Below are positions 6,390 to 61,488 of a stretch of 64,000 nucleotides of DNA, piece after piece. The position numbers and the translations under genes are program-made. The notes below the pieces were generated by a model that saw only the letters and a list, made by a program, of their open reading frames with translations, searched no databases and had not been told where the DNA came from. Source of the DNA: a virus; the IMG/VR virus record IMGVR_UViG_3300045988_161046, positions 37,807 to 101,806 of that record. One strand, 5' to 3'. How positions within the stretch are numbered: the stretch's first letter is position 1; each line of letters begins with the position of its first letter.

Positions 6390-6536
6390 GTGTTGAATGT
6401 TGAGTGTTAAATGTTGAATTTGGCTAGCGCCCTTGAGCCTGGTGGGGGACCAGCGATAGAATCGCTGGGGACGGGGGCGATAGGAAGAAACGCAACCCCG
6501 ATAGACTAATTCAACATTCAACACTCAACATTGAAA
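6390..6536. repeat. Class-C palindrome C1: (GTTGART)n arms 6390-6420 / 6509-6536 enclosing Class-A copy
   Basis: gtgttgaatgttgagtgttaaatgttgaatt ... aattcaacattcaacactcaacattgaa. Confidence 0.85.
6447..6479 (+). repeat. Class-A hairpin element copy 2
   Basis: ggaccagcgatagaatcgctggggacgggggcg. Confidence 0.9.
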
Positions 6537-21610: not shown

Positions 21611-22276
21611 ATGAAGAAACTGGATATAAAAAGAGCCTTGCGTGAACATCACATGACGCAGGTTGAACTTTGCAAGAGAACCGGATTGCTTACTCAGAAC
21701 ATGAGTCCGATCATAAACGGCAATCCTACCATCTCTAAACTCTTCCAAGTAGCCGAAGGCATCGGCTGCGACATCACCGACCTCTTCTATCCCGACCCTG
21801 CGGAAGAAGCAGAGGAGAGAGACAAGGCACTCGAAAACGCAAAGAATAGCAAGATGCCGCTGGAACTTATTCTGCGTGACCTGACAAGAAGAGCCTATCC
21901 TAGCATCACGAAAGAGGAAATGGAGGAATGGATGGATGTCATCAGAAATAAGAATATGGTTCCTTGGTTTGATATAAATCCAAGCCAAATGGGTCTGCAG
22001 AATGCGATGGATAAGCTAAGACAATTCGAAGAGGCTAGAAAGAAGCATGAGGGCGAAACTCTGAACGAAACGCTGCGGGGCGATTTGCCGGAAGGTATCA
22101 TCAGCAGAGATGTGAAGTTTGTGCAGCAGGGAGCAGGGAGCGAGCCATCCTATCAGGTTCACGAAAACGGACTGGAATCAGAAAACCAGCAGCAAATAAT
22201 TCAGACTTCCACCTTCTGCCCTCACTGCGGCAAGAAAGTAAGGGTAGGAGTGGTATTATTAAATGTTGAATGTTGA
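21611..22276 (+). CDS. XRE/Cro-CI family HTH regulator with C-terminal zinc-ribbon-like CPHCGKK (repressor candidate)
   Basis: MKKLDIKRALREHHMTQVELCKRTGLLTQNMSPIINGNPTISKLFQVAEGIGCDITDLFY; start moved from 21566 to 21611. Confidence 0.75.
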   Translation: MKKLDIKRALREHHMTQVELCKRTGLLTQNMSPIINGNPTISKLFQVAEGIGCDITDLFYPDPAEEAEERDKALENAKNSKMPLELILRDLTRRAYPSITKEEMEEWMDVIRNKNMVPWFDINPSQMGLQNAMDKLRQFEEARKKHEGETLNETLRGDLPEGIISRDVKFVQQGAGSEPSYQVHENGLESENQQQIIQTSTFCPHCGKKVRVGVVLLNVEC

Positions 22277-22293
22277 GTGTTGAATGTTGAATG
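22263..22293. repeat. Class-C single arm C2
   Basis: atgttgaatgttgagtgttgaatgttgaatg; no partner arm nearby. Confidence 0.75.
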
Positions 22294-26809: not shown

Positions 26810-28258
26810 TTAATCCAAGTCGTAAGTAAAGTTACCACCACGAAGGAAGACTATAGATGCGAAAGTTTCCAATGGGTAGATGTTTTGTTGCCTTCCCAAA
26901 TTAAGTTTTTCAATGATGCGCTTGCTTGTAGTACAGAACTTATATTTCTCACTATTAGCATCATCCTTGAAAGAAAACATCACCCAACAGCGACCACTTT
27001 TATTTGCTATCGTCACATTATCCTCGAAATCGTGAATGATTATCGGTACATGTGTCTGTGCCAACTCTGCAAGTTTCTTCTCCAGTACGTCAAAGACACG
27101 CTTACCATCCTTATCCACATTTACTTGACTTGTAGTAATTCCATGTTCTTTAAAACTCATGTTATTTTCCTTTAATATCGTATTCCATAAATTATTACAT
27201 TTTCCCCATTTAGCTATTCCCCAATAGGAAGCATACAACTCTTTCCTTCTTTTGCGGCTCTTTACTCCATGAAAGCTTTTCACCATGTTGAGTTTGGTAC
27301 GCTTACGCATTCTCATGTTTTTACGGGAAAATACATATCCCACAAAGTCGATGCTGCGACCATCTATCAGCTTACTCTCATCCATCAATGGTGCAACATA
27401 GCTACTACATTTCACTACCATTCCAATACGACTAAGAATATCATCAAAGCACCTCAATAACTCATTGGCTTCTTCCTTGGTTCTAACCATCGCAACTATA
27501 TCATCGCAATGCCTATGATAAAACTCTATGTGCAATTTCTGCTTGGCATATCTGTCAACTTCCGAAAGTACGAGATTGCCGATTATCTGCTTGATGCAGT
27601 TACCTAGTGTTATACCTCGTTCTTCACCTACATAAGCAAGTGGAGTATTCGAAGTCCAAGGACACGTTGCACGTTTCTTGGCATCTTCTTCCAGCAACAA
27701 AGGCTCAATATCCGATTCATAGTCTAAAACCGTCTTCTCTATTAGTTCTAAGAATAGGTCATCATCAATGTACCTTCTCAACGCATTCATTACAACCTTG
27801 TGAGGCAAAGACGGATAGAACTTCCTTATATCTAGCTTTACTACGTAATGAAGATTAGGATGCTTACGCAATAGCTGTTGGGTTCTCAAAGCTGCGAATA
27901 CTTGACCCTTACCCTTTCTTCCTGCCGAAGAATCGTATATCAGAATCTTCTCAACTATAGGCTCGAACACTACCTTAATGGCATGATAGAGGATATTCCA
28001 AGGCATGAAGTGTTGTGGATATATCACTCTGTCCTTATCCTTTGCGTGAAGAACCCTGGGACGATAAGGCTTCGTAGGATATTCTCGCAAAATTATCATA
28101 CTTTGAATCTTTTCGAGATTTGCAGTCTCATTTTTAAGAAACTGCTTCACGTACCAAGCTTCCTTATCTTTTACCACACTTGTTGCATCATTCGCACCTT
28201 CCAATAAGGTTTCCATCTTTATCACCTTGTCAATAAGATGCCTTGCTTTCTTTGTCAT
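26810..28258 (-). CDS. DGR reverse transcriptase
   Basis: RT motifs LDIRKFYPSLPH, GITLGNCIKQIIGNLVLSEVD (DGR-type (I/L)GxxxSQ-like), HCDDIVAM; sits directly downstream of TR; ~150 aa C-terminal extension. Confidence 0.85.
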   Translation of the reverse strand: MTKKARHLIDKVIKMETLLEGANDATSVVKDKEAWYVKQFLKNETANLEKIQSMIILREYPTKPYRPRVLHAKDKDRVIYPQHFMPWNILYHAIKVVFEPIVEKILIYDSSAGRKGKGQVFAALRTQQLLRKHPNLHYVVKLDIRKFYPSLPHKVVMNALRRYIDDDLFLELIEKTVLDYESDIEPLLLEEDAKKRATCPWTSNTPLAYVGEERGITLGNCIKQIIGNLVLSEVDRYAKQKLHIEFYHRHCDDIVAMVRTKEEANELLRCFDDILSRIGMVVKCSSYVAPLMDESKLIDGRSIDFVGYVFSRKNMRMRKRTKLNMVKSFHGVKSRKRRKELYASYWGIAKWGKCNNLWNTILKENNMSFKEHGITTSQVNVDKDGKRVFDVLEKKLAELAQTHVPIIIHDFEDNVTIANKSGRCWVMFSFKDDANSEKYKFCTTSKRIIEKLNLGRQQNIYPLETFASIVFLRGGNFTYDLD

Positions 28259-28466
28259 TATTTCAAAGAGTCGCTTATTTTTCCTCGCCCTAGGCTTTTC
28301 TCCATACTGGCTGCATGGCTACATCACCTAGCTTGTCTGTAATTTAATACTGACCTTTCTGCGTATATGTTTTGGCAGTCCACTAAAGACCGCCAAGGTT
28401 CACGAAACTCAATCGAAAATGGTTTCTCTCTATAGGAGAGACTACTTTTCTGCCTTGATTGATTTT

Positions 28467-28583
28467 ATAAGTTAGACGAGCCCCGTAATTCGTCCTGCGG
28501 TTATCGAAAGCGTTATTCGAATTGACGCAACCGAGACCGCTGTGCGACTGGTTGTTGGAATTGCCACCCCAGATACAGAGCTT
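28467..28583 (-). repeat. DGR template repeat (TR)
   Basis: Gap-free alignment to 28780-28896; Asn (AAY)-rich reading ...WGGNSNNQSHSGLGCVNSNNAFDNRRTNYGARLTY. Confidence 0.9.
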
Positions 28584-28730
28584 ATGTTTCGTTCCACCTT
28601 TTATGCGAGTTGTTTGCGAATTTATGTGAATGTTAATAATTTAATTATTTAACTCTTATGCTCGCTCGCTACGGCTCGCTCGGTTTTTAATTGCCTTGCT
28701 TGCCATAGCTTGCTTGCGTTTTTTGGTGCT

Positions 28731-28749
28731 GCTGACCCTAAAGGTCAGC
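28731..28749. other. 7-bp-stem hairpin at the target gene stop (VR-flanking)
   Basis: gctgacc-ctaaa-ggtcagc. Confidence 0.6.
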
Positions 28750-30039
28750 TCCGTTTACGATTTTCGGTAATGCGCCATAATAAGCGAGACGAGCCCCGCA
28801 ATCCGCCCTGCGGATATCGAAAGCGTTACTCGAATGGACGCAACCGAGACCGCCGCGCGACCGGGCGCCGGAATAGCCACCCCAGATACAGAGCTGCCCA
28901 ACAGGCTTATTATTGCCGTCATAGCACCAATACTTATCTCCCCAACGGCTACCAGAGCCACCTCCACCTTGTGAAGGAATGAGGTCGAAATGTTCACCAA
29001 TCGCCATCTTTGCTATCCACATTTCTTGACTTCCCAATCGTTGAATAGTACGATATGTTCCTGTAGGATGGCTAATAAGTTCCGCATCGGTCGGCAGTCG
29101 ATTACCTTCGTATATAAACGCCTCTAGTCCAGTCTGTCCTTCATTGTTTACATTACCGAAATAGATACCTTGTCTCATTTCCCATTGCCAGTTGTACCAG
29201 TCCTCGACACCAAAGAGAGATACACGACAAGCATTCGGTGCATTAGTTAACGTGATAGGTATCTTACCGCAACTATCTCCAAGTGATATTGTTGCACCCG
29301 TCTTCAACTGAGAAACTCCACCCCAGTTGTCTGCCCATTCACCTTCACCGCCAACACCATTTCCGATATTAGCTTGTACGTTAGGATTGCCATACTCGGA
29401 TAGGTTTGTCATCATTCCCCATTGACCATGCTCGTAGCAAGTGATACCATAATCCTTACCATTGTTTCTAGCGAGATTCCAGAAATCACGGATAAATCTG
29501 CTTCCTGATACATCAATGTTCTTACCGCTACGAGAATGAAGAGCATTACCAGCAACACTACCCATGTATGCACCAATCATCGGATGCTCGATATAATAGC
29601 CACCAATAGGATATTGTGACTGCCATACAACATTGCATCCCATTGATGCATCATACTTAACGACAAAATAAAGGCGTGGAGCTACCACGAATACATCACC
29701 TTTCGATTCATCAACGGTCGTACCATCCGCAAAAATCGAACTATTGATAGATGATAGTTTTGCCATCTTCTCACCTCCAGTCTTCACAAGGTAGCGACCG
29801 ATAGCTCTCTTGTACTCTTCCCATAAGGAGAGATTACCTATTCTTCCCCAATTTTGACTATCTTCGTCTTGTTTGATAGGTGTACCCCACGCTATCAGAG
29901 CCAAATCAAGTTGATTAGTCTGAATAGAGTTAGCCAAATCAGACAGCTTGATACGTCTGAGCGAGCCACCAACCTCTATCAATAAAGTATCACCCTTAAC
30001 CATTGATGATACCAATGCTACTGTTGCAAGATTTTTCAT
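28738..30039 (-). CDS. DGR variable protein; receptor-binding/tail-fibre candidate with C-type-lectin-like C-terminus
   Basis: VR lies in the last ~50 codons (...CIWGGYSGARSRGGLGCVHSSNAFDIRRADCGARLAYY...). Confidence 0.85.
   Translation of the reverse strand: MKNLATVALVSSMVKGDTLLIEVGGSLRRIKLSDLANSIQTNQLDLALIAWGTPIKQDEDSQNWGRIGNLSLWEEYKRAIGRYLVKTGGEKMAKLSSINSSIFADGTTVDESKGDVFVVAPRLYFVVKYDASMGCNVVWQSQYPIGGYYIEHPMIGAYMGSVAGNALHSRSGKNIDVSGSRFIRDFWNLARNNGKDYGITCYEHGQWGMMTNLSEYGNPNVQANIGNGVGGEGEWADNWGGVSQLKTGATISLGDSCGKIPITLTNAPNACRVSLFGVEDWYNWQWEMRQGIYFGNVNNEGQTGLEAFIYEGNRLPTDAELISHPTGTYRTIQRLGSQEMWIAKMAIGEHFDLIPSQGGGGSGSRWGDKYWCYDGNNKPVGQLCIWGGYSGARSRGGLGCVHSSNAFDIRRADCGARLAYYGALPKIVNGADL
28780..28896 (-). 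repeat. DGR variable repeat (VR)
   Basis: 16 mismatches to TR, all at TR coding-strand adenines. Confidence 0.9.
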
Positions 30040-37379: not shown

Positions 37380-40184
37380 TTACAGGGCGTACACTGTTAA
37401 CTCAACCTCGCCCATTCCCGTCTTGGCATCGATGGTGGTGTTTACCTTGTCTATGAGGCATTTCATACCGCCTATATTCCACCATTCCTGCCAGTGGTTC
37501 GGTATATCGGCCACTTGCGCTACGGTGGTGGTACATCTCACCATAAACTTCTTTCTGTTTAAGAGGAAGTAAGCGTAGGGGAGGACGAAGGTATCAAAGA
37601 GGCCACGGGAGCGAACCTTCTTAACCACCTTACCATTTTTATCTACCTCATCTTTATCACAAAGTACTACATTTTGATACTTCGGATCACTCAACCACGA
37701 TGGTTCCTTGAAAGCACGTATCTTGAGTGAGAATTTTTCACCTTCGCCCGTTCCTTCCTGAATACCATTATAGTCAAATTCATTACCCATCATATCCAAT
37801 GAATCGCATGCCAGGGCATACTTACCAGATACGGTACGCCATTTGGACGTTCCGAAGTGGTCGTAATTATAATCGTAAGACTGGCGGGTAGCATCGCTAC
37901 CACCGCCTCGCATCAAAGCAACCGCATATCCCCAGCGTGAATCATCCTGCAACGGAGAGTTGCCATCATCGGTGCTCGAAGGGTCGTAGCTTTCTACGAG
38001 TGATAGTGTCTGCTGCATGTAGAAATCACAGAAAGCAGTAGAGATAGTCTGATTGATAATCTGCTCCACAAACTCATGCTCCATATCCTCATCTACATAA
38101 GCACAGAGGATAGGCTGACCGTCAGCGATAGTTACACCATATTTCTTGCCGTTGTAGGAGTCGATTGCCTCGTGAGAGCCATAGGCAGCTTCTATCTCTT
38201 TGAAATAGTTCACGTCATTAAACGGAACAGGAGTAAAATCTACCGAAATATCGTGAACGAAATCTTTGTTCTCATCACTGCAATCTCCATATTCTACACC
38301 CTTGAACTGACCTACTTCAAAGAGTACCGGTTTCAAGTCGGCTGTCGTGGTTGCATCACTATTCACTTTTACGCGATAAGCGTTGCCAGTCTTGCGGTCG
38401 ATATAGCAGTGCTTATCTCCACTACTCAGATTATGGAAGAAATCGATGTAGTCGAGATTGTAGACCGTGGAATTATCGCCACTATCGGGCGCAGGGTAAT
38501 CGATGTAGTCGTAATCGGTAGAGTAACCCATATTCTTGTTTCTACGGCTATCGAGTACATTCTGACGCTGATCTTTTGCATCACTCTCTGCAGAATAGCG
38601 CATACGCACACCTGTAATTTTCTCTGTCACCGGAATCATTGAATGAATATTGGCATGAAATGTTCTTGCCTTATCGCCACTCTTGCGCAGCACATCACGG
38701 GTGAGATAGGCTGTTACCTTCTTTTGTTCGTAATCATACGAAAACTTGATACCAAAGGCGCTTTCCAGCGAAGAGATAATGGTGCTTACACTCTCGTCGG
38801 GGAAATTCCCGCTGTTGGCTACCATATTGAGCACGTTCGCCTGAACATTGAACTTGCTGATTTTAGCCTCGATGCTGATACCGGTTACCTTGCCGCCATC
38901 ATCGCGTACCTCACCTACCTGCACATGCTCGGTCGTACCCTCTGGTGTACGGAGGGTCAACTCCTGCACATCCTTATCCTCGGCTTTCACGATATTAATC
39001 TTTCCACCGCAACCGCGGCTTTCGAGCCATGAATTGATATGCTCCTGACTTTGAAAATAACCTGTCTTTATTTCACCAGCTTTCTTCTTCTTGGCGATGA
39101 CTTCGGCATCAGTTTCGCTGTAATAAGTACCATGATGAGGATGTTGAATGGTATCGTAGCTGCATACGGTCGTGAAGAAGCAGAGGTGTTTCAAATCCTC
39201 TATCTCCATTAATGCCTTCTTGTCGAATGTAACACCAAGATAGTCAAAGAGGCAATCGAGGAAATAAAGCACATAGAAGCAGATACCAGACTGCGGGCGT
39301 TTTGCATCCAATACCCAATAAGGATAAAGGTCTTCATTCGTCCAGGTACAATCCTTCATGCTGATAATGCCGCTATCAGTTTTTTTTCCTTCTTCGTCCA
39401 AACCATGATGTTTATAACAGATACGTGCGTTGCAATAAGAAGCGGCTCTACCCGCGCCGTCGGTTTCACCATAGGCTGCGGCGGTATTGATGTAGTTTCC
39501 GTTACTAGCGATGGCAGGCTCATTTACAATGTGGTTCTGGGGATAGGAGCGCTCTGACATAATCTTAGCATCTCCTTTTTTGTGATGGGTGCCTGTAGTA
39601 GTCCATTCCACGCAATTAGCAGGATAAGAGAAACCGAGTGCCTGCGGTTCGAGAACCTTGCTTACGCTTACGTGGGCGGCTCTGATTTCGTGGATTTCCG
39701 TCTTATCATCCTTATGCTTACCTCCGGTAACAAAAACATTTACCTTTACCACAGGGTCGCTCTCTATATCCACCCTCACATTACCTATCTTCTCGCCGAT
39801 GATAATCTGGTCCTTGACCGGAATATCACGACATTGCAGGTCGCTGATAAGCTCGCTGAAACTCTGGGTGCTGGCATCGATGTTCATACTGAGGGAATCG
39901 GTTATCTCCTCATCGTCCTGCATGACCAAGGTACCGCTGCGGAATGGCAGTCCGTCGGCATGAATGCGGGTAGGCAGGTGCTCCATGTTTACGGCTTTTA
40001 CCGCTGCATGCACGTCTTCTATGTTCTTTACCAGCCAGCGGTTGCCATCTAGCGGAATAGAGAAAGGATAGGAGAACATTTCCGTATCGTTGAACACAGG
40101 GTTCTGGTCCTCTATATCTATAGAGAAATCATCGGGCAAAGCTACCGGCTTGTCATTGATTAATATCGTAAGATGCGAGTTCAT
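37380..40184 (-). CDS. large (934 aa) tail/baseplate structural protein
   Basis: ORF track; size and synteny only. Confidence 0.55.
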   Translation of the reverse strand: MNSHLTILINDKPVALPDDFSIDIEDQNPVFNDTEMFSYPFSIPLDGNRWLVKNIEDVHAAVKAVNMEHLPTRIHADGLPFRSGTLVMQDDEEITDSLSMNIDASTQSFSELISDLQCRDIPVKDQIIIGEKIGNVRVDIESDPVVKVNVFVTGGKHKDDKTEIHEIRAAHVSVSKVLEPQALGFSYPANCVEWTTTGTHHKKGDAKIMSERSYPQNHIVNEPAIASNGNYINTAAAYGETDGAGRAASYCNARICYKHHGLDEEGKKTDSGIISMKDCTWTNEDLYPYWVLDAKRPQSGICFYVLYFLDCLFDYLGVTFDKKALMEIEDLKHLCFFTTVCSYDTIQHPHHGTYYSETDAEVIAKKKKAGEIKTGYFQSQEHINSWLESRGCGGKINIVKAEDKDVQELTLRTPEGTTEHVQVGEVRDDGGKVTGISIEAKISKFNVQANVLNMVANSGNFPDESVSTIISSLESAFGIKFSYDYEQKKVTAYLTRDVLRKSGDKARTFHANIHSMIPVTEKITGVRMRYSAESDAKDQRQNVLDSRRNKNMGYSTDYDYIDYPAPDSGDNSTVYNLDYIDFFHNLSSGDKHCYIDRKTGNAYRVKVNSDATTTADLKPVLFEVGQFKGVEYGDCSDENKDFVHDISVDFTPVPFNDVNYFKEIEAAYGSHEAIDSYNGKKYGVTIADGQPILCAYVDEDMEHEFVEQIINQTISTAFCDFYMQQTLSLVESYDPSSTDDGNSPLQDDSRWGYAVALMRGGGSDATRQSYDYNYDHFGTSKWRTVSGKYALACDSLDMMGNEFDYNGIQEGTGEGEKFSLKIRAFKEPSWLSDPKYQNVVLCDKDEVDKNGKVVKKVRSRGLFDTFVLPYAYFLLNRKKFMVRCTTTVAQVADIPNHWQEWWNIGGMKCLIDKVNTTIDAKTGMGEVELTVYAL

Positions 40185-43416: not shown

Positions 43417-43453
43417 TTTTTTTACCTTTTTACTTTTTTACTTTTTTACCTTT
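43417..43453 (-). repeat. Class-B array B7, between portal stop and next ATG
   Basis: tttttttacctttttacttttttacttttttaccttt. Confidence 0.8.
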
Positions 43454-45269
43454 AAGAGACCTCTTGTTTCGCCACTCCGGTCTTCGAGTTATCGAGGGTA
43501 GTCAATACCTCCCGGTCAACCTGCCATACCAGGTGCTCGTCCCAATCGTTGAAGCGGCTCAAGACTTCCAGCGGGCGTATCATCAACTGCTGCAATGGGG
43601 CAAACTGAATCTGCTTGACCAGGAAACGCTCTCTCAGGTCGGTACCGCCAGAGGACGCTGTATCACCAGGGGTGTTGCCGATGAGCTTTGCATCGAGACC
43701 CATGGCAAAGAAGATGATGCTGCTTATTTCCTGTAACTCGGTCTTGTCGGCATTCGCCTGATCATTTGCCTTGGTTTCGATTTCCACGATTTCCCAAGCC
43801 TTGTGCTCCTTTCCGTCGCTTCCCGTAAAGGCAGAAGAGATGAGTGCCTGACCTGCATTATCAGGGTTGGCGAGCCATGTATTGATGGAAGTGAAGATTT
43901 CATTCTGAATCTCACCCTGGGTTTTCTTTTTCTTCTCACCCTGCTGCTGATAGAGCCTGCTGATATAGTCCTGGTGGATATAGATGACACGACCGATGAT
44001 GTTGCTGTTGCGCTTTCGGGTGAGGCGGTCATCTACGATGGTGAAGGCATATTCAAAGATGCTGCCGGCAAAGATGGAGTGCCAAAGGGCATCGGCATAA
44101 TACGGACCACCGAAATCACGTGGCGACATGATGAAGCGGGTAGGGCGTTTCTTGCGGCTTACCTGCTTCTGACGTGCCTCACGTATCTTGCGCTGCAAAT
44201 CCTTTACGGCTGATGTGGTAGGGAGATAAGGGATAGCCGCTATCTTGCGGTCTTCCTCCTTCTGCACACCGACGTATTGGGTTGGGTCGAGCCACTGGTT
44301 GCTGACGTAGGCATAGTTGATGCGGTAGTTCTCGTCCATTCGTTCCAGTCGGGTGGTGAAAATACTGCGATGCTTCAGACCGATTACCTTCGGGGTCCAT
44401 TGAGCGGTAGGAACAGCCTTGCCGTTTTCGTCGAGGGAACGCTGATTAAGCTGAAGTTCTACAAAGCATTGTGACATCAGAGCCATATCTCCTGCCAGGT
44501 CGAGGAAGGTCTGCATCAGGTCGTTATTCTCTATGAAATCACGAAGCTGGGTATTGGTTTCTTCCCATTTGTGGAGGGCTTCTTTCAGAGATTTCATCTC
44601 CTCGCTTTCCTCTTCATCGGAGGATAAGACCTGCGATGAAATCGCAGGGAACGGAGTCTCCTCTTGCTGAGACTGCCCGTTCTGGCTCTGCTGCTCGCTC
44701 TGGCGCTTGGCTTCGGCGGCTGCCTCTTCCTTGGCTTTGAGGTCGGCTATCTGACCACGGAGCAGAACTCCTGCACTCTCGTAGGGGATATATTTCTCTG
44801 TGATGTTTCCGCCTACATACTGGGTATAGTGATACTTTGGGGCGGGACCGCGACCTACCAGTATCTTCTTGATGTAATCAACTCCTGCTGCCGTAAAGGG
44901 CGACATACGGGAGAGCATCCAGATAAGGTTTGGCAGTCGGTTGGACATACCCCATTCCATAAAGCCTAAGCCTTCGGTACCTACGTCTTTCGGTTTACCC
45001 ATGTTCTCGCCGCCACTTGATGCAAAGATTGTGGAGACTTGCTGACGTGCTGCAGAACCGCTTGCGTCGCCACCGCTTGCCGACATACCGGCTGTGGTCA
45101 GGAGCATGCTGTGAACGTAGTCGTTCCAGGAGAAGACTTTACCGCCACCATTCTTAAGCGGCGTAAAGGCATCCGGGCGAACGGCTACATAGCCTGCATC
45201 TTTCAGTTCCTCACTACGCTGTTGGAGCTGCTGCAGGTTGGTTACTCTGTTTCTGTTTTTGCTTGCCAT
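43452..45269 (-). CDS. portal protein
   Basis: 605 aa; C-terminal region ...IIFFAMGLDAKLIGNTPGDTASSGGTDLRERFLVKQIQFAPLQQLMIRPLEVL resembles the conserved portal core. Confidence 0.55.
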   Translation of the reverse strand: MASKNRNRVTNLQQLQQRSEELKDAGYVAVRPDAFTPLKNGGGKVFSWNDYVHSMLLTTAGMSASGGDASGSAARQQVSTIFASSGGENMGKPKDVGTEGLGFMEWGMSNRLPNLIWMLSRMSPFTAAGVDYIKKILVGRGPAPKYHYTQYVGGNITEKYIPYESAGVLLRGQIADLKAKEEAAAEAKRQSEQQSQNGQSQQEETPFPAISSQVLSSDEEESEEMKSLKEALHKWEETNTQLRDFIENNDLMQTFLDLAGDMALMSQCFVELQLNQRSLDENGKAVPTAQWTPKVIGLKHRSIFTTRLERMDENYRINYAYVSNQWLDPTQYVGVQKEEDRKIAAIPYLPTTSAVKDLQRKIREARQKQVSRKKRPTRFIMSPRDFGGPYYADALWHSIFAGSIFEYAFTIVDDRLTRKRNSNIIGRVIYIHQDYISRLYQQQGEKKKKTQGEIQNEIFTSINTWLANPDNAGQALISSAFTGSDGKEHKAWEIVEIETKANDQANADKTELQEISSIIFFAMGLDAKLIGNTPGDTASSGGTDLRERFLVKQIQFAPLQQLMIRPLEVLSRFNDWDEHLVWQVDREVLTTLDNSKTGVAKQEVS

Positions 45270-45414: not shown

Positions 45415-45446
45415 GGACCAGCGATAGAATCGCTGGGAACGGAGGC
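45415..45446 (+). repeat. Class-A hairpin element copy 6
   Basis: ggaccagcgatagaatcgctgggaacggaggc. Confidence 0.9.
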
Positions 45447-45474
45447 TCCTCTTCTTATTCATAATTAATAATGA

Positions 45475-45567
45475 TCATAAAATCTTTGGCGATGGAGGAG
45501 ATGGCGTTACTGATACCCCCCCCGATTTCTAACCTTTGGGAGTGAGGGTTGGAGTACCAATCACCAT
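45475..45567 (-). pseudogene. degenerate C5-MTase TRD-like cassette c with in-frame TAG and G8 tract
   Basis: Manual translation MVIGTPTLTPKG*KSGGVSVTPSPPSPKIL*; TAG at 45529-45531; C8 at 45516-45523. Confidence 0.35.
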
Positions 45568-45594
45568 CGGCTCTGCCTCTGCTTGCGCAGGTTC

Positions 45595-45777
45595 TTATTC
45601 GTATTGTTGCCATAAAAGATTATCTTTCGTTACGGTGGAAATGCAGTTACTCCAGGGGTAGGAGCTTGGGCGATGATACTTATCCTGATAGCGGCAACCG
45701 CCTCTGTCGCCGTGTATCTTGCGATATGCCTTCGCTTCCTCGGTGCGATAGTGGGTAATGATGGCTTGCTTAATCAT
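45595..45777 (-). CDS. 60-aa protein, paralog of 45944-46120
   Basis: MIKQAIITHY...TKDNLLWQQYE vs MIKILAIHEA...TKDNLLAFRYE; its ATG overlaps the stop of TRD cassette b (ATGATTAA); ORF track gives 45595..45816. Confidence 0.45.
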   Translation of the reverse strand: MIKQAIITHYRTEEAKAYRKIHGDRGGCRYQDKYHRPSSYPWSNCISTVTKDNLLWQQYE

Positions 45778-45934
45778 ACTCCACAAATATTTTGGGATGA
45801 AGTCCACCTCCCCCACATGTATTACAAGCAGGGGCTATGCCTTTTACCGAATACACTCGTTTTGCCAGTTGAAAGCGCTTATCAAAAGGAGGCGTATTCA
45901 GCAAGCCTACTACTATCGTATGTATTTCGTTCAT
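45770..45934 (-). CDS. detached C5-MTase TRD-core mini-ORF b (54 aa)
   Basis: Manual translation ...AKRVYSVKGIAPACNTCGGGGLHPKIFVEYD; resembles the M.HhaI-type TRD core RIYSTRGIAITLSAYGGG. Confidence 0.45.
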   Translation of the reverse strand: MNEIHTIVVGLLNTPPFDKRFQLAKRVYSVKGIAPACNTCGGGGLHPKIFVEYD

Positions 45935-45943
45935 AACTTTTCT

Positions 45944-46120
45944 TTATTCATATCTGAAGGCAAGGAGATTATCCTTCGTGTGGAAGGTACCGATGCACTG
46001 CATCAGGAAGCTGTCACGGAAGAAGATGGCTTTATCACGATAATCGTTGGTGCCAGTCTGCTTGCGTACTTCCTTGGCGTGCTCTGTTCTTGCCTCGTGA
46101 ATGGCTAATATCTTAATCAT
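45944..46120 (-). CDS. 58-aa protein, paralog of 45595-45777
   Basis: Manual translation MIKILAIHEARTEHAKEVRKQTGTNDYRDKAIFFRDSFLMQCIGTFHTKDNLLAFRYE. Confidence 0.4.
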   Translation of the reverse strand: MIKILAIHEARTEHAKEVRKQTGTNDYRDKAIFFRDSFLMQCIGTFHTKDNLLAFRYE

Positions 46121-46206
46121 ATTCTATTAATACAAGGGGTGGCATATCATTAGGGTCATTCTCTTTCTCTTCGGAAGGAGGAATACTGCCTTTATCTATT
46201 ATAACC

Positions 46207-46356
46207 TTATTCATACTCTAATAATATTTTCGGTTTATCAACATCATGCCCTTTGCCCCCCCCACAAAGGCATAGGGCAATACCTTTCGGATGCACGATA
46301 ATGCCATTTTGGGATGGACTATAAGAACCGAGGATAATAGGACGATTACAAATCAT
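46207..46356 (-). CDS. detached C5-MTase TRD-core mini-ORF a (49 aa) containing a G8 tract
   Basis: MICNRPIILGSYSPSQNGIIVHPKGIALCLCGGGKGHDVDKPKILLEYE; its ATG overlaps the MTase TGA (ATGA); C8 at 46256-46263. Confidence 0.45.
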   Translation of the reverse strand: MICNRPIILGSYSPSQNGIIVHPKGIALCLCGGGKGHDVDKPKILLEYE

Positions 46357-47654
46357 TTCTTCTCCAAAAACTGATGATACAAATTATCTAACTTTGGATT
46401 TTGGAACTTGCCGTTCTCTTTCCAGTCATTGAACAGCGGCATGATGATGTCCTCGTGAGCAGAAGAAATCTCCTCCTGCAGTTCTTTTAGAGTGCAATTC
46501 CAAAGATGCGCCTCTTCTATATAAAGAGTGAGGATGGCTTTCAATGCCATTGCATTCTCGTGGCTCGGCTCTATCTCGAACTGATGGAAGACGCAGGTGT
46601 CTTTATCGTTTGCCTGGAGGAATTTGCTGACGGCTTCATCTTTCAGGAAGAACCTTGTATCTACTTCTTCCTGCAACACATCTTCCAGCTTTCTCTTCAG
46701 CGGAATAGGGTCGGGGAACTGGTAATCGAAGGCTACATCTTTTCTCATCGAGAGGCAGAATACTCGGTCGCGGTTCTGCGGAACACCATAGTCTTTGGCA
46801 TTGAGTCTTGCCCATCGGCTTACGTAACCGAGAGATGAGAGCTTATCAAGCCACTTCTGAAAATCGGGCATAAACTTCTCACTTACCAGGGCTGCCACAT
46901 TCTCCTGGAGTAGATACTTCGGTCGCAATACTTCCACGGCATCGGCTACTCGCCACAATAATGCCGAGCGGGTATCGGAACCTTCCTTCAAACCCATCTG
47001 CTTGCCGGCTTGCGATATATCCTGACAAGGTGAGGAATAGGTAAAGAGGTCGATTTCTTGCCCCCCCACATTACGCTTTACCTGTTGCCAGTCGATTTTG
47101 GTTATATCGCCCAAGGCTTTGTCGGCAAACTGCGGAAAGATGAGATTGTGCATCTGACAGGCATACTTATCTATATCGCTCCAGCCTACACACGTCCAGC
47201 GGAAATCAGGGTGCTGCTGGGCGAGGACATCGGCTGCCATCAACTGCGAGTCGTAACCGGAGAAGGTGGTGAGGATAAGTTTCTCGCCATGGTTCTTATC
47301 TACCGGATAGGTAGGGAGTTGGTCTTCTGGGAAGAAATCGGCAAAAAATGAAGTCTGCGCCTCATGCTTCGGTTCTTTCGGGTACCAGAGTTGCTGATAG
47401 ATGGCTGCGAGCACATCTACCACGATGGAGTTACCTGCCTGCTTGTATTGCTGACTGGCTGATACTGCCATATCTTCTGCCTTTCCCTTGCTCTTATAGC
47501 CGGCTACTCGCTCGGCTGCCTGGGCGTTGGTACTTTGCATCGTGCGGATCACATCATCACGCACACCCATCAGTCGAAAACACTCGAAGGGTGTCAGCTT
47601 TCGGATGGCATAAGACTTAATGGTCTTATCCTTGAAATTGAACTTTGTTATCAT
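46353..47654 (-). CDS. DNA cytosine-5 methyltransferase, circularly permuted motif order IX-X-I-IV-VI-VIII
   Basis: IRKLTPFECFRLMGV (IX), QAGNSIVVDV (X), TTFSGYDSQ (I), SSPCQDISQAGK (IV), LLQENVAAL (VI), VPQNRDRVF (VIII), in that order. Confidence 0.85.
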   Translation of the reverse strand: MITKFNFKDKTIKSYAIRKLTPFECFRLMGVRDDVIRTMQSTNAQAAERVAGYKSKGKAEDMAVSASQQYKQAGNSIVVDVLAAIYQQLWYPKEPKHEAQTSFFADFFPEDQLPTYPVDKNHGEKLILTTFSGYDSQLMAADVLAQQHPDFRWTCVGWSDIDKYACQMHNLIFPQFADKALGDITKIDWQQVKRNVGGQEIDLFTYSSPCQDISQAGKQMGLKEGSDTRSALLWRVADAVEVLRPKYLLQENVAALVSEKFMPDFQKWLDKLSSLGYVSRWARLNAKDYGVPQNRDRVFCLSMRKDVAFDYQFPDPIPLKRKLEDVLQEEVDTRFFLKDEAVSKFLQANDKDTCVFHQFEIEPSHENAMALKAILTLYIEEAHLWNCTLKELQEEISSAHEDIIMPLFNDWKENGKFQNPKLDNLYHQFLEKK

Positions 47655-47684
47655 CTTGTTTTGCTCTATAAATCTTTTCTTTGT

Positions 47685-48011
47685 TTATAATTCTACGAAT
47701 ACAAACGGATTGCTGCTGGCTGCCGTGAGTGTATTCACCATTTTACCCCCCCCAACTGTGCGGCTGCGTCTTAGGGCAGAGGTAGGGTAGTTCAAATCGG
47801 CTACACCGGGTGCAGGGCAATCGGTATAGCCTTGCTCTGTAGCCTGACGGATGCGCAGGAATGTTTCTCCTTCTATATCCACGATTTCAAGAAACGGACG
47901 GTCGGAGGTGGAGTATATCCGATAGAGAGAACCATCTGGATAAAAGCCATATCTCTTTCCGTTCAAGATAATCGTTCCTCGCTTGTATTGAGGTTGGTTA
48001 TTGCTACTCAT
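47685..48011 (-). CDS. C5-MTase TRD-like ORF T1, in frame with the downstream MTase across one TAA
   Basis: LRIRQATEQGYTDCPAPGVADLNYPTSALRRSRTVGGGKMVNTLTAAS resembles the ATKKGY...RRGRVG...TLT TRD type; C8 at 47746-47753. Confidence 0.5.
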   Translation of the reverse strand: MSSNNQPQYKRGTIILNGKRYGFYPDGSLYRIYSTSDRPFLEIVDIEGETFLRIRQATEQGYTDCPAPGVADLNYPTSALRRSRTVGGGKMVNTLTAASSNPFVFVEL

Positions 48012-48132
48012 ACTCTATCATTATGCAGTGTGGGCATTTATAATCGGTGGCTCTGAGCGCAGAAGAAAGCTCCCCCCCATTTCTTCCATTCCTGTTTACG
48101 GCTCAAAGGGTGTACAGATGCCTTTACATCTA

Positions 48133-49239
48133 TCATTTGTTCCTCCTCATCTTTTCCATTTCCTCATTCTCTTTCGACAACCTTTCGAGATGTTCGAGAA
48201 CGAGGGAATAAGACTGAGTATTGACCTGATCTTCCGTTAGGCCGACATACTTCTGCATCGTAGCGGTGGTGACGGTGTAGATCTCCATCGGGGTTTGCGG
48301 CTTGGTGTTGTTTGCCTTCTGTACCTTGAACACGTGAGGGTAGCGATGAGCTAGGGTGTGCATGATGCCCGTCCACCAGAAGAGGATGACCTGCCAGTTT
48401 GCCTCTGGGAAATTGACGAAATACTTTGCGTTCTCGGTGAACTGCTTTGACTCGTAATGAAAATCGTATTTCGTGATGCCTGTTGTCGGATCGACGTACT
48501 GGGTGGTGGTGTTGAAGATGGTGGCAAGGAACATGTTTCTGGCGCTAGCTACGCTCTGAGCTTGCGTCTGAAGTTGCTCCTCGATGAACTTATCCATCTG
48601 CTTCATCTTTACCAGGTTATTGCTTAACTTGGTGTAGGTCTGCATCATATCGCTAGCAAAACGGTATTGCTGCCAGGAAAAGCCATCGAGGTCTGTACTC
48701 GGACCGCGGAAGGCTTTGGCACGACGATACCACTTGGCTTTCTGTCCGATGAGCGGATAGGGGAAGAGGGTGAGGAAATTGCCGCTGTCTGCATCCAGCC
48801 AGTCGAGAAGACCTGCGCCCTGAGCGATATACTCAGGGGAGGTTTTATCCTTGGTCTTGGCTTTCGGAGAGAGCCAATAGTTGAGCTGCCAAAGATAGAG
48901 GGGAAAGTGGCTGCCGGACTGCGGACCAGCGATAGAATCGCTGGGAACGGGGGCGCAGAGGGAGAGGAGCTTCTTCAGAAGGCTCTTCTTCTGCGGCTCT
49001 ATGCTTACCAGGTAGTGCTGCTCATTGATAGGCATGCGAGGGTCGGGATAGGCATTGATGCCTATTCCGGCAAAAAGGAAGAAAACGGCTATCTTCACCT
49101 TCTGCATATCGAAGGGGTGATAGCGGTCTGCCTTGGCTATCTGCTCCAGCATGATGAGGGCAATCTGCTCCAGCTGGGTAGGGGTGCATTGGTTCCAGCC
49201 GCGGGGGATGGTGAGGTTTATCTGTTCTTGCATAATCAT
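48133..49239 (-). CDS. hypothetical protein carrying an in-frame Class-A element
   Basis: ORF track; residues ...CAPVPSDSIAGPQ... are encoded by repeat 48923-48955. Confidence 0.55.
   Translation of the reverse strand: MIMQEQINLTIPRGWNQCTPTQLEQIALIMLEQIAKADRYHPFDMQKVKIAVFFLFAGIGINAYPDPRMPINEQHYLVSIEPQKKSLLKKLLSLCAPVPSDSIAGPQSGSHFPLYLWQLNYWLSPKAKTKDKTSPEYIAQGAGLLDWLDADSGNFLTLFPYPLIGQKAKWYRRAKAFRGPSTDLDGFSWQQYRFASDMMQTYTKLSNNLVKMKQMDKFIEEQLQTQAQSVASARNMFLATIFNTTTQYVDPTTGITKYDFHYESKQFTENAKYFVNFPEANWQVILFWWTGIMHTLAHRYPHVFKVQKANNTKPQTPMEIYTVTTATMQKYVGLTEDQVNTQSYSLVLEHLERLSKENEEMEKMRRNK
48923..48955 (+). repeat. Class-A hairpin element copy 7 (inside CDS)
   Basis: ggaccagcgatagaatcgctgggaacgggggcg. 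Confidence 0.9.
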
Positions 49240-49246
49240 TTTTTTT

Positions 49247-49341
49247 AGTGTTGATTGTTGAGTGTTGAATGTTGAATTGCCTCACGGACTCGATGGCGTA
49301 TTCCTAATTCAACATTCAACACTCAACATTCAACACTCAAT
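49247..49341. repeat. Class-C palindrome C3
   Basis: Arms 49247-49278 / 49306-49341; loop contains cctcacggac. Confidence 0.85.
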
Positions 49342-60010: not shown

Positions 60011-60292
60011 TCATCCTCTCAAAACCTTATTTCCTGTAGGTAAAAACGTGAGGTTTCTCAGTCGTTCCAGCGAAGGATATTGCTGATTTACTCTGTCTCT
60101 GAAATCGTCCATATCGCCCATGTATACCATATATTTTCCCAATGCCATATCAAAGTTCACCGGGAACGTCATCGTGATTTGACGGAGGAATTTACCCCCC
60201 CCAATCATTACATCGAATACAACTTTCTCCCATCGCTGACCTTTCTTGTCGAGCCATGACCCCTTCGGGATTTCTACTTTTCTCTTTGCCAT
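60011..60292 (-). CDS. hypothetical protein containing a G8 tract
   Basis: ORF track; C8 at 60195-60202 encodes IGGGK. Confidence 0.5.
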   Translation of the reverse strand: MAKRKVEIPKGSWLDKKGQRWEKVVFDVMIGGGKFLRQITMTFPVNFDMALGKYMVYMGDMDDFRDRVNQQYPSLERLRNLTFLPTGNKVLRG

Positions 60293-60330: not shown

Positions 60331-60419
60331 ATGTTGAGTGTTGAGTGTTGAATGTTGAATTAGGCTAGCGCCCTTGAGTCCGTCAGACAATTCAACATTC
60401 AACATTTAACATTAAACAT
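60331..60419. repeat. Class-C palindrome C4
   Basis: Arms 60331-60361 / 60389-60419; loop ggctagcgcccttgagtccgtcagac. Confidence 0.85.
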
Positions 60420-61488
60420 TCCGCTCGCGGTAAACCTGCTGCAGAATAGAGTGATATTCTCCTTCGCCCAAATTCACCTTGGCGGCGTGGATAAGGTAAT
60501 TGTAACTCACAGTGGTACTTCTGCCTAACTGCCGCCACTTCTGTGAAGCCTGGGCAGCGTTGTACTTCCGGCTGCAGGCTGAAAGCTCGTGAAACAGACG
60601 TTCGCCATAAGGGTGCGCCTTCAATGACCAACCTGCCTTCGTCCACTCATCGTAGCTTTCCGTAATGTTGATGTTTCGGCTCACTAGGGCTTTTACGATG
60701 AGTTCGATGATGCGGTCTTGCGTGCGAGGATCATTCCAGAAGGCTGAGTTATCGCTGCCGCCGTAAGCGCTGGAGGCGTTACTCTGCGGTTGCCGGTACA
60801 TCGGTCGTGCCTGCGGTATCACCTGCGGTTCGTCCATCTGCAAGCCTTGGTAAGGCTGCACATGAGTATTAATATATATATGGTCGGCATCATCCCATGA
60901 AGCGAAACGCACACGTCCGATATTGCCGCATTGCTTATCGAGCACGATGCCCAAGGCTGCATATTCCTTGAGGATAGCCTTGAACTGCTCCTTATGCCTG
61001 TCGGGATAAGCCAGCCGAACCAGTCCGAAATATCCGGTACCCGAACAGGAACGCATCAGCAAGCCTATCTCTGGACGGAAACGAGCCACCATGCGGATAT
61101 TCTCAAAGCTGGTAAGCTGCTGGTTGTCCTGAAGGTCGATGTCGATAGCGAGCCATCCGGTATGCTGCCAAAGATGGGTTTCTCTTCTTGATACCATCAC
61201 GCGCTGACCGGGATGGGTAAGGCTATCGTCTTCGTAGAGACGGAAGAGACCGCTCAATGTGGCACCGGGAAGCATCTTCTTTGTTTCGATATATTCCGGC
61301 ATCTTCTTCGCCTTGCTGCCATACTGTTGCCTCATGGCTCTCAGCTTCTCAACATACGGCTTCCATCTGTCCGTCAGACAAAACTCACGGATAGACATCT
61401 GCGTGATGCACTCGCCAGTCTCCATATCGATAAAGTCACCGTGGGCATCCGTAGCAGACTTGTAGATGGAGCATATCTCTTCAAACAT
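60412..61488 (-). CDS. primase-like protein (VirE/BT4734 N-terminal-type domain plus PriCT-2-like C-terminus)
   Basis: ...RSCSGTGYFGLVRL...GNIGRVRFASWDDADHIYIN... and ...YDEWTKAGWSLKAHPYGERLFHELSACSRKYNAAQASQKW. Confidence 0.5.
   Translation of the reverse strand: MFEEICSIYKSATDAHGDFIDMETGECITQMSIREFCLTDRWKPYVEKLRAMRQQYGSKAKKMPEYIETKKMLPGATLSGLFRLYEDDSLTHPGQRVMVSRRETHLWQHTGWLAIDIDLQDNQQLTSFENIRMVARFRPEIGLLMRSCSGTGYFGLVRLAYPDRHKEQFKAILKEYAALGIVLDKQCGNIGRVRFASWDDADHIYINTHVQPYQGLQMDEPQVIPQARPMYRQPQSNASSAYGGSDNSAFWNDPRTQDRIIELIVKALVSRNINITESYDEWTKAGWSLKAHPYGERLFHELSACSRKYNAAQASQKWRQLGRSTTVSYNYLIHAAKVNLGEGEYHSILQQVYRERNV

Follow-up and report, generated by a model that had tools for sequence, protein, structure and literature searches.

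Length-variable G tracts in the mini-genes of a split, permuted C5 DNA methyltransferase from a gut phage lineage: candidate contingency loci

Introduction

A DNA methyltransferase locus in a viral genome (IMG/VR record IMGVR_UViG_3300045988_161046) raises the question of why five long runs of G should lie within 2.6 kb of one coding strand, and what a change in their length would do. The locus is part of a 64,000-nt stretch of DNA (positions 37,807 to 101,806 of the record), hereafter called the window, and all coordinates below count from its first nucleotide. An initial annotation of the window, made from the sequence alone, had listed six such tracts, five of them around the methyltransferase, and had proposed that each target recognition domain (TRD) module, as well as the catalytic core, may be switched independently. 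Here the proposal was examined by homopolymer counts, protein comparisons and the analysis of related loci. It appears reasonably probable that the tracts are contingency loci, each gating one detached-TRD mini-gene of a split, multispecific-type C5 DNA methyltransferase.

Results

G tracts and codon usage in the window

A homopolymer count over the whole window (GC content 45%) returned exactly six G or C runs of at least 7 nt, the same six that had been found by eye, five of them inside 45516-48078 (2563 bp) and the sixth at 60195-60202. No further run of this length is present in the window, the next longest being one C6 and one G6. All six runs are C on the plus strand and therefore G on the minus strand, which carries the genes; the open reading frames (ORFs) and tracts described below are all on this strand. 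The peptide contexts given earlier were also correct, namely IGGGIS in mini-ORF f (G8, 45516..45523), CGGGK in mini-ORF a (G8, 46256..46263), NVGGQ in the core (G7, 47061..47067, extending to NVGGQE), VGGGK in T1 (G8, 47746..47753) and IGGGK in the ORF at 60011-60292 (G8, 60195..60202). The fifth tract of the cluster (G7, 48072..48078) had been described as upstream of T1. Rather than being intergenic, it falls in an additional TRD-like mini-ORF (u0), whose reading frame breaks there, and therefore all five clustered tracts, rather than four, are in methyltransferase-related coding sequence.

That five tracts are more than chance would give held for their clustering (five of six runs within 2.6 kb, scan P about 5.5e-5) and for the longer runs, with four runs of at least 8 nt against 0.67 expected, a number reached in none of 300 first-order Markov simulations. 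It held less well for the total of runs of at least 7 nt, which was only mildly high (6 observed against 2.9 expected, P=0.08). The strongest argument against a chance origin of the tracts is codon usage. In the 42 other long minus-strand ORFs, GGG was the rarest Gly codon (41 of 931, 4.4%) and none of 75 Gly-Gly pairs was encoded as GGG-GGG, a codon pair that is present in T1, module a, module f and the core, u0 having TGG-GGG-GGA. Pure G runs, which make up about half of the alleles over more than 20 diverged module families in related loci, are thus strongly enriched against the codon preference of the genome.

The catalytic core

The 433-aa product of the central gene (46353..47654) matched the C5 DNA methyltransferase family PF00145 (E=1e-50) in two stretches and contains the conserved catalytic and S-adenosylmethionine-binding motifs of these enzymes (FxGxG, PCQ, ENV, QxRxR, IX, and X with GNS). 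Alignments to M.MpeI, M.HhaI and the canonical 333-aa protein P0416 covered FSGYDS, SSPCQD, ENV, QNRDR, RKLTPFEC and QAGNSIVV. The canonical order of motifs I-X with the TRD between VIII and IX was not found, motifs IX-X being N-terminal and followed by motifs I-VIII and a C-terminal tail of about 95 aa. Specifically, core residues 13-47 aligned with residues 331-365 (motif IX) and core residues 187-358 with residues 112-286 of the M.MpeI chain (4DKJ). On P0416, core 131-337 corresponded to 8-204 (motifs I-VIII, E=2e-33), core 15-90 to 277-332 (motifs IX-X, E=1e-7) and T1 52-107 to the TRD region at 220-275 (48% identity, GGG aligned on GGG, E=1e-15). P0416 205-276 had no counterpart anywhere in the core, and the core tail (338-433) showed no TRD similarity. 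The pieces tile on P0416 in the order core, T1, core, and T1 therefore ends exactly where the core N-terminus takes over. The alignments indicate that the core is circularly permuted (IX-X before I-VIII, with the break in the variable region) and devoid of a TRD.

In nearly all relatives the core is a separate ORF, of 431-442 aa where intact. A natural fusion of core and module a was found in P0210 (482 aa, 4 contigs), in which a frameshift in the last ~25 core codons reads into a, giving the architecture of a single-chain permuted enzyme with a C-terminal TRD. T1 and the core are in the same frame and one TAA apart in the window, and read-through of this stop was considered; neither the frame relation nor the stop position is conserved in relatives, and a read-through fusion was excluded because the same-frame relation is not kept there.

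An array of mini-ORFs on both sides of the core

Upstream of the core lie u0 (48004..48136) and T1 (47685..48011). A three-frame translation of u0 reads MIDVKASVHPLSRKQEWKKWGG, a change of frame being needed to reach ELSSALRATDYKCPHCIMIEYE and the stop codon; its G7 tract is of out-of-frame length (OFF), and the ORF would be restored by G6 or G9. T1 is an intact (ON) stand-alone TRD protein of 108 aa ending in RRSRTVGGGKMVNTLTAASSNPFVFVEL, with the in-frame G8 tract coding for Gly85-Gly87. Downstream of the core follow mini-ORF a (46207..46356, 49 aa, ending in CLCGGGKGHDVDKPKILLEYE), whose ATG overlaps the TGA stop of the core (ATGA), b (46113..46214, 33 aa, ending in PPLVLIEYD), c (45944..46120, TRD-like, 58 aa, ending in TFHTKDNLLAFRYE), d (45770..45934, TRD-like, 54 aa, ending in RVYSVKGIAPACNTCGGGGLHPKIFVEYD), e (45595..45777, a TRD-like paralog of c, 60 aa, ending in NCISTVTKDNLLWQQYE) and f (45455..45613, 52 aa, ending in LEIGGGISNAISSIAKDFMIIINYE), the last being the cassette c of the initial annotation. 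Modules a and f are intact (ON) with G8 tracts of in-frame length, d carries an interrupted or "locked" Gly run (GGGGGAGGTGG), and b, c and e have no G tract.

The 3' ends of the mini-ORFs encode a hydrophobic strand followed by EY(E/D) and the stop, or by VEL and the stop in T1, and coincide with the structural boundary at which motif IX normally begins. Start and stop codons are separate for each module; the stops are conserved over about 90 loci and hundreds of protein clusters, and most of them overlap the ATG of the next mini-ORF. The junction motif TAYGANTAR had 10 matches on the whole minus strand, 7 of which fall in this locus. Recoding at the module junctions, by a +1 slip or a ribosomal hop at GAG TAT GAA TAA, was considered and rejected, as no slippery re-pairing is available and the families are conserved as stand-alone ORFs; ordinary translational coupling, on reasoning only, is the simpler reading of these junctions.

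Mini-ORF homology to TRDs of multispecific enzymes

Homologues of T1 formed 171 clusters, almost all of stand-alone proteins of ~105-108 aa with no Pfam domain, and those of module a formed 89 clusters of stand-alone proteins of ~49-50 aa. In an exhaustive search of 1.84 billion representative proteins with a T1-family profile, positions 48-101 of the profile matched internal segments of long proteins, of which 10 out of 10 tested were PF00145 members with the match between motif VIII and motif IX. In several of these long proteins (P0388, P0389, P0399, P0409, P0424, P0452 and P0465), motifs IX-X are preceded by different TRDs in tandem, the arrangement of multispecific enzymes. In a 56-protein database, in which all E-values for modules against TRDs were computed, seven of the eight modules (T1, a, c, d, e, f and frame-repaired u0) each matched a different TRD of tandem-TRD PF00145 proteins. 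Module d was 55% identical to a TRD of P0388 (E=8e-12), and u0, once its frame was repaired at the tract, matched a TRD segment of P0452 (E=1e-9) in an alignment spanning the tract. Module c matched TRD segments of P0389 and P0409, module e TRDs of P0394 and P0395, module f TRDs of P0452 and P0409 and, weakly, module a a TRD of P0399. The GGG peptide motif is likewise conserved in canonical single-chain enzymes, as in P0416 (RRGRIQGGGKICPTLTAS).

The ratio of nonsynonymous to synonymous substitution rates (dN/dS) was 0.09-0.33 for all eight mini-ORF families at a synonymous divergence (dS) of 0.3-1.2, with values of 0.17 for u0, 0.10 for T1, 0.09 for a, 0.16 for b, 0.09 for c, 0.31 for d, 0.15 for e and 0.10 for f. 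These values argue that the mini-ORFs are real genes under purifying selection. The alignments and substitution rates together point firmly to a TRD-less permuted core accompanied by an array of selected mini-genes, most of them homologous to single TRDs.

Tract length variation among relatives

Related loci were collected with the core as query (80 from IMG/VR and 8 from genome bins), covering 4 kb on either side of the core, and tracts were sorted into homologous families by their 25-nt flanks. Coding-strand G runs of 6-13 flank the core in most of the 88 loci, and C runs are rare. Occasional runs of C8-C9, on the opposite strand or in Pro codons, were seen at about +61 from the core start in L035 and L038 and in the downstream arrays of L018, L023, L043 and L047, one such run sitting inside the N-terminal part of more distant cores.

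Over about 110 related loci, pure runs at homologous sites ranged from 6 to 11 G, and interrupted, mostly synonymous forms (GGGGGTGG, GGAGGGGG, GGTGGGGG) were almost always of in-frame length. The state of the ORF followed tract length modulo 3, with 67 ON and 79 OFF alleles among pure tracts and 124 ON and 31 OFF among interrupted ones, off-frame lengths truncating the module within a few codons. In the family of u0 (family 16), in-frame alleles are 8-nt forms such as GGGCGGGG and GGGGGGAG, and the window has GGGGGGGAG. The T1 family (family 12) contains pure runs of 6, 8 and 9 and interrupted forms that are all 8 nt long. In the family of module a (family 3), G8 and GGAGGGGG are intact and G7 is broken, and in that of module f (family 8) pure G7 and G9 are broken, G8 and eight interrupted 8-nt forms being intact except in one case. 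Most tract families share the context G(n)-TA. A second, independent classifier based on ORF length gave somewhat different ON and OFF totals from the frame-based one and led to the same conclusion; by this measure, 49 of 74 OFF alleles would regain a full-length ORF by a single +1 or -1 change at the tract.

The clearest case is a pair of genomes that are 98.7% identical, L002 and L005, whose four module tracts measure 9/7/9/8 and 8/8/8/7, respectively. As G8 is the intact state in all four modules, L005 is ON, ON, ON, OFF and L002 is OFF, OFF, OFF, ON; in the family of module a, L002 has G8 (ON) and L005 has G7 (OFF). Alignment of 11 near-identical genome pairs over 90 kb gave 40 indel events, of which 12 fell in G runs of at least 6 and 2 in A/T runs of at least 6, with about 23 sites of at least 7 in each class; in three identical genome pairs the tract lengths were identical. 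Relatives thus differ in tract length, and the window is not rich in such tracts elsewhere, so that neither of the two findings named in advance as telling against phase variation was made. These comparisons support independent ON/OFF differences between modules, and indicate that tract length varies among close relatives and decides the integrity of the predicted mini-genes.

When public metagenome contigs were scanned independently with flanks fixed at 27 nt, 24 contigs were retrieved, most of them named as SPAdes assemblies. Pure tracts were intact at G8 (six contigs) and truncated at G7 (four), G6 (two) and G9 (one), and all ten interrupted 8-nt alleles were intact, one further allele (AGGGGGG, 7 nt) being off-length. 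Off-length alleles occurred in short-read SPAdes assemblies at a coverage of 146x (AGGGGGG, the highest) and 38x (pure G7). High-coverage samples with this phage include ERZ1034915 (146x), ERZ1034680 (75x) and ERZ1035027 (38x). At the protein level, ~1,770 of ~5,800 T1-family sequences in the top 120 clusters (~31%) diverge or stop directly after RTVGG(G), and each off-length form comprises hundreds of sequences, such as P0010 with 593 members and P0062 with 348. In the hybrid proteins P0046, P0080 (28 members) and P0090, the N-terminal part of T1 continues, precisely from the G tract onwards, into the C-terminal tail of another module that ends in ILIEYE, IVLIEYK or IIIVFEYE, which suggests deletion or recombination between the G tracts of neighbouring modules.

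The tract of the core behaved differently from those of the modules. Its length was exactly 7 in 22 of 22 relatives with a pure tract, three other relatives differing by substitution with no frameshift, and the tract is missing from more distant cores; a single rare cluster of frameshifted proteins, P0226, was observed. This invariance provides a control on assembly accuracy and is evidence against switching of the core. The idea that modules and core all switch independently is therefore retained for the modules, with their hypervariable tracts, and is not supported for the core.

The sixth tract

The sixth tract lies in a 93-aa ORF (60011..60292) downstream of a primase-like gene (PriCT_2 / BT4734-like, 60412-61488). 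The ORF had no family match and is unrelated to the methyltransferase or the TRD modules. In 39 relatives (L089-L127, with 1.5 kb covered on either side of the ORF) its tract was also hypervariable, with pure runs of G6-G10 of which G6, G7, G9 and G10 truncate the product and G8 (8 loci) leaves it intact, and with 15 of 15 interrupted 8-nt versions in frame. The sixth tract behaves like those of the modules, and G runs in this phage lineage are therefore unstable wherever selection tolerates it.

Gene neighbourhood and phage context

Two conserved genes border the fixed slot in which the array lies. On the 5' side is a 368-aa ORF (48133..49239), which had no Pfam or PHROG family match, whose TGA stop overlaps the ATG of u0 and which was found in 24 close loci using it as a tblastn anchor; on the 3' side is a conserved 605-aa ORF (43452..45269), identified from the ORF list and the locus comparison. 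The content of the slot varies among these 24 genomes (core identity 81-97%, above 90% in nearly all): 481-1033 nt of it precede the core and 1081-1971 nt follow it. Related loci typically hold 5-10 intact mini-ORFs per genome. A 32-nt direct repeat, with one copy just 3' of module f (45415..45446) and the other inside the 368-aa ORF (48923..48954), brackets the methyltransferase island; the copies are 97% identical and 3508 bp apart, and could be the scar of an insertion or duplication or a site of island deletion.

Arrays of the heptamer TCAACAY were observed at 6391-6530, 22264-22290, 49249-49335 and 60332-60411 (19 matches against 0.26 expected), mostly as inverted pairs of about three tandem units. 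Two of the four sites lie directly upstream of polyG units, namely the 93-aa ORF and the 368-aa ORF at the head of the methyltransferase locus, and the arrays may be a shared promoter, operator or terminator element.

Related contigs are ~50-110 kb long and classed as viral, with PHROG matches that include a head maturation protease, an endolysin and a reverse transcriptase. A guess at a crAss-like phage found no backing, with no crAss-specific family among ten proteins scanned against PHROGs. No close phage relative was found in GenBank by DNA, and protein comparison returned only distant methyltransferases and a distant Flavobacterium-phage protease. The titles of bins and one UniRef name point to Prevotella or Alloprevotella, several bins being clearly mis-assigned, and the hosts are probably Prevotella or other Bacteroidales.

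The window also contains a complete-looking diversity-generating retroelement (26810-30039). Its reverse transcriptase ORF (26810-28258, minus strand) matched phrog_1423 (E=1e-61), and its 116-nt repeats are at 28467-28582 and 28780-28895, the template copy being intergenic and the variable copy forming the 3' end of an adjacent 433-aa target ORF (28738-30039, minus strand). The copies differ at 16 positions, each of them an adenine in the template (11 changes to G, 3 to C and 2 to T). With the retroelement and the G tracts, the phage would carry two separate diversity-generating mechanisms.

Discussion

Alternative explanations for the tracts

The variation described above could also arise at a non-adaptive mutational hotspot, where the G runs are a by-product of the conserved Gly-Gly-Gly and slippage frameshifts are deleterious and continually purged. 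The conservation of this peptide even in canonical single-chain enzymes such as P0416 would fit, as would the abundance of interrupted and mostly intact alleles and the signs of ordinary decay in some arrays and cores. The motif needs only GGN codons, however, and is nonetheless written with the rarest Gly codon of the genome, in a pairing seen nowhere else among the 75 examined; pure G8, which should be rare under negative selection, is carried by roughly one allele in two across more than 20 diverged families, and pure G runs recur in the unrelated 93-aa gene and are missing from the multi-TRD gene of Dulem virus 40. OFF alleles are moreover frequent (31-54%), with the tract as sole lesion in two thirds of them, in genes evolving at a dN/dS of ~0.1. 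Frequent OFF alleles with no other lesion fit frequent reversion better than dead ends, and an origin of the tracts as a purged hotspot is considered unlikely. Alternatively, the main role of the tracts may be to provide microhomology for recombination, through which TRD halves are shuffled and cassettes lost or duplicated, length change being a side effect. The hybrids P0046, P0080 and P0090 joined at the tract, the variable array content and length among genomes with cores 92-97% identical and the G(n)-TA context common to most families are what such recombination would leave. The hybrids are, however, a small minority compared with simple +1 or -1 length variants, a conserved 12-20-nt junction (GAGTATGAWTAA) is a better candidate for cassette shuffling, and length varies also in the single-copy 93-aa gene, which has no recombination partner, so that a role primarily in recombination is improbable.

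Long homopolymers are known slippage sites, and polymerase or ribosome slippage at the G run could in principle yield a truncated and a full-length product from one allele. The alternative frames do end within a few codons, often with TAA or TAG right after the run. Against such programmed recoding, in-frame alleles need none, interrupted alleles that would abolish slippage are common and conserved, no alternative-frame product is conserved and length polymorphism is seen directly in the DNA; recoding is accordingly regarded as very improbable. It is harder still to believe that the length differences are sequencing or assembly miscalls, even though every sequence compared comes from a metagenome assembly and some sequencing platforms are prone to homopolymer errors. 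The tract of the core is G7 in 22 of 22 relatives, and A/T runs as long as the G runs seldom change length (2 events against 12). Deviations are almost absent from interrupted tracts, and identical genome pairs from different assemblies share identical tracts. Off-length alleles, for their part, are found in short-read assemblies at up to 146x coverage (38x for pure G7) and in hundreds of independent sequences per form.

Proposed mechanism and its limits

The reading preferred here is that the module tracts are contingency loci gating detached TRDs. As in simple-sequence-repeat contingency loci generally, the repeat is inside coding sequence where a change of one unit alters the ORF, and its length polymorphism, between conserved flanks, far exceeds the background of indels. 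The conserved Gly-Gly-Gly is encoded in many modules as a pure run of about 8 G, which gains or loses single Gs, presumably by slipped-strand mispairing during replication of phage DNA and in a reversible manner, and an off-frame length truncates one module only. Such switching would amount to phase variation in the strict sense if it were frequent as well as reversible within a clonal phage population. An intact TRD mini-protein may dock onto the core in trans to give one methylation specificity. As the TRDs are in separate ORFs and motifs IX-X are on the core, a frameshift in one TRD would spare the enzyme and the other TRDs, and specificities could switch independently; in a single-chain multi-TRD enzyme, such a frameshift would remove motifs IX-X and thereby kill the enzyme. 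A phage population would then be a mix of methylation repertoires, which might hedge between hosts whose restriction-modification requires methylation and hosts with methylation-dependent nucleases. The role of bacterial phasevarions, in which methylation regulates genes, is not implied and not expected for a phage, for which anti-restriction is the expected function.

Several observations weigh against this reading or restrict its reach. No TRD homology was found for module b in the 56-protein comparison, and its role is for this reason the least certain; the T1 profile, when searched against solved structures, retrieved no methyltransferase and only spurious repeat matches to designed propeller proteins, and an AlphaFold2 model of the P0210 fusion, built on a shallow alignment, had low confidence, its mean pLDDT being 50.5. 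Roughly one in three OFF alleles is ambiguous or has further lesions, and in L005, L064, L071, L086 and L087 (core from 4001 onward, or from 1437 in L064) the core is cut short by lesions elsewhere than at the G tract; some of the variation is thus ordinary decay. The lesion in L005 is a change of TGG to TGA at core codon 281, in a genome with three modules ON; these five cores could be inactivated enzymes, or TGA could be recoded there. Many alleles are locked by synonymous interruptions, and mutability is therefore not obligatory. Contigs of ERZ1034855 with two tract lengths proved to be from two different strains (92% identity) and are thus uninformative on a single clone. Finally, a premature stop may lower translation of the next, coupled mini-ORF, in which case switching would perhaps not be fully independent.

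A bolder form of the contingency reading, which is put forward as a tentative possibility rather than as the expected outcome, is that of a "combinatorial methylation switchboard" in an abundant human-gut phage lineage. A TRD-less permuted core might be programmed in trans by up to ~10 TRD mini-proteins (~50-100 aa), many of them gated by selected hypermutable G tracts, one genotype generating subpopulations of differing 5-methylcytosine (5mC) specificity as a bet-hedge, and the separate ORFs and the position of motifs IX-X on the core would be the enabling adaptations. If so, this would be the first methyltransferase with specificity from exchangeable mini-subunits, each with its own mutational switch, carried by a virus; phage contingency loci would serve counter-defence besides receptor binding, and the arrangement would explain how one gut phage lineage copes with diverse host restriction systems. 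It would also let the modularity of C5-methyltransferase TRDs be studied in a natural system, in which dozens of small TRD families serve one core, and could yield parts for programmable 5mC writers. For metagenomics, a small ORF that is frameshifted at a G run in a viral contig can reflect a biological state and need not be an error. The locus is abundant, being found in thousands of public assemblies, and allows direct read-level measurement of phage phase variation; its unexpected architecture and its abundance in public gut data make it of high interest.

Comparison with known systems

In the literature covered, which excludes most subscription journals, phage polyG and contingency loci were found and the present arrangement was not described. 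Among the closest known enzymes are the multispecific C5-methyltransferases of Bacillus phages (SPR, phi3T, rho11s, SPbeta and H2), which carry several TRDs of ~40-60 aa on one catalytic framework, and M.phiBssHII, whose TRDs are at separated locations. The locus resembles them in having several distinct TRDs per framework, with TRDs on both sides of the core recalling M.phiBssHII, and differs in that their TRDs are all in one polypeptide, whereas here they are predicted to be in separate ORFs, next to a TRD-less core and with G tracts in many modules. Dulem virus 40 (L128, PP511379.1, 45859-47799), the one comparator of its kind examined, has a two-gene split C5-methyltransferase with no G runs, composed of a 259-aa alpha subunit (motifs I-VIII) and a 374-aa beta subunit (several tandem TRDs and motifs IX-X), and seems to stand, in evolutionary terms, between the single-chain multispecific type and the mini-ORF array.

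Naturally permuted C5-methyltransferases with IX-X before I-VIII are known (M.BssHII, M.Alw26I, M2.Eco31I, M.Esp3I and M2.BsaI), engineered permuted M.MpeI/M.SssI split as IX-X-I..VIII plus a detached TRD fragment is active by complementation, and the naturally split M.AquI alpha/beta is active (PMC5944983). The permutation point is in the variable region in these enzymes as in the present core, and the topology of the engineered pair is that of core plus T1, so that assembly of TRD and core in trans may be proposed by analogy with this engineered precedent (PMC5944983). Natural permuted enzymes, in contrast, keep the TRD in the chain, a domain that the core lacks, and repeat tracts are reported in none of them. 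M.AquI is similar in that adjacent ORFs divide the enzyme in the variable region, but consists of two subunits, in place of one core and up to ~10 alternative TRD subunits. In Type I restriction-modification systems, HsdM and HsdS are translationally coupled (PMC3510504), and HsdS likewise provides specificity from a separate neighbouring, coupled polypeptide that varies by exchange of TRD cassettes; the enzyme family, fold and chemistry are nevertheless unrelated, and HsdS is a large two-TRD scaffold and not a ~50-aa peptide.

Phase-variable Type III mod and Type I hsdS/hsdM genes with simple-sequence repeats form the phasevarions of Haemophilus, Neisseria, Helicobacter, Moraxella and others (PMC6902483, PMC5700931, PMC12707154). 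There too the repeat is in the coding sequence of a methyltransferase component, slippage by one unit toggles methylation specificity and alleles differ in their TRDs. The present carrier is a phage, however, the enzyme is a C5-cytosine instead of an N6-adenine Type I or III methyltransferase, and switching is here presumed to be reversible. Since the tracts are distributed over several separate TRD mini-genes instead of lying in the catalytic gene, the output would be combinatorial rather than a single ON/OFF. Among phages, hypermutable polyG tracts occur in receptor-binding protein genes of Campylobacter Fletchervirus (Sorensen et al. 2021, cited in PMC12823448 and PMC12633550), contingency loci are described in T2/T4, and a polyG tract in the methylase gene of Bordetella phage BPP-1 is mentioned as unstudied (PMC12633550). 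These are phage-borne homopolymers as well, with 7-11 G in which frameshift subpopulations act as bet-hedging, but they are located in receptor-binding or assorted genes with one tract per gene, whereas those described here are concentrated in an array of putative methyltransferase specificity modules, at a conserved Gly motif, in uncultured gut phages. The locus lacks one defining feature of each of the enzyme classes compared, and combines contingency repeats with a split, permuted, multispecific-type C5-methyltransferase.

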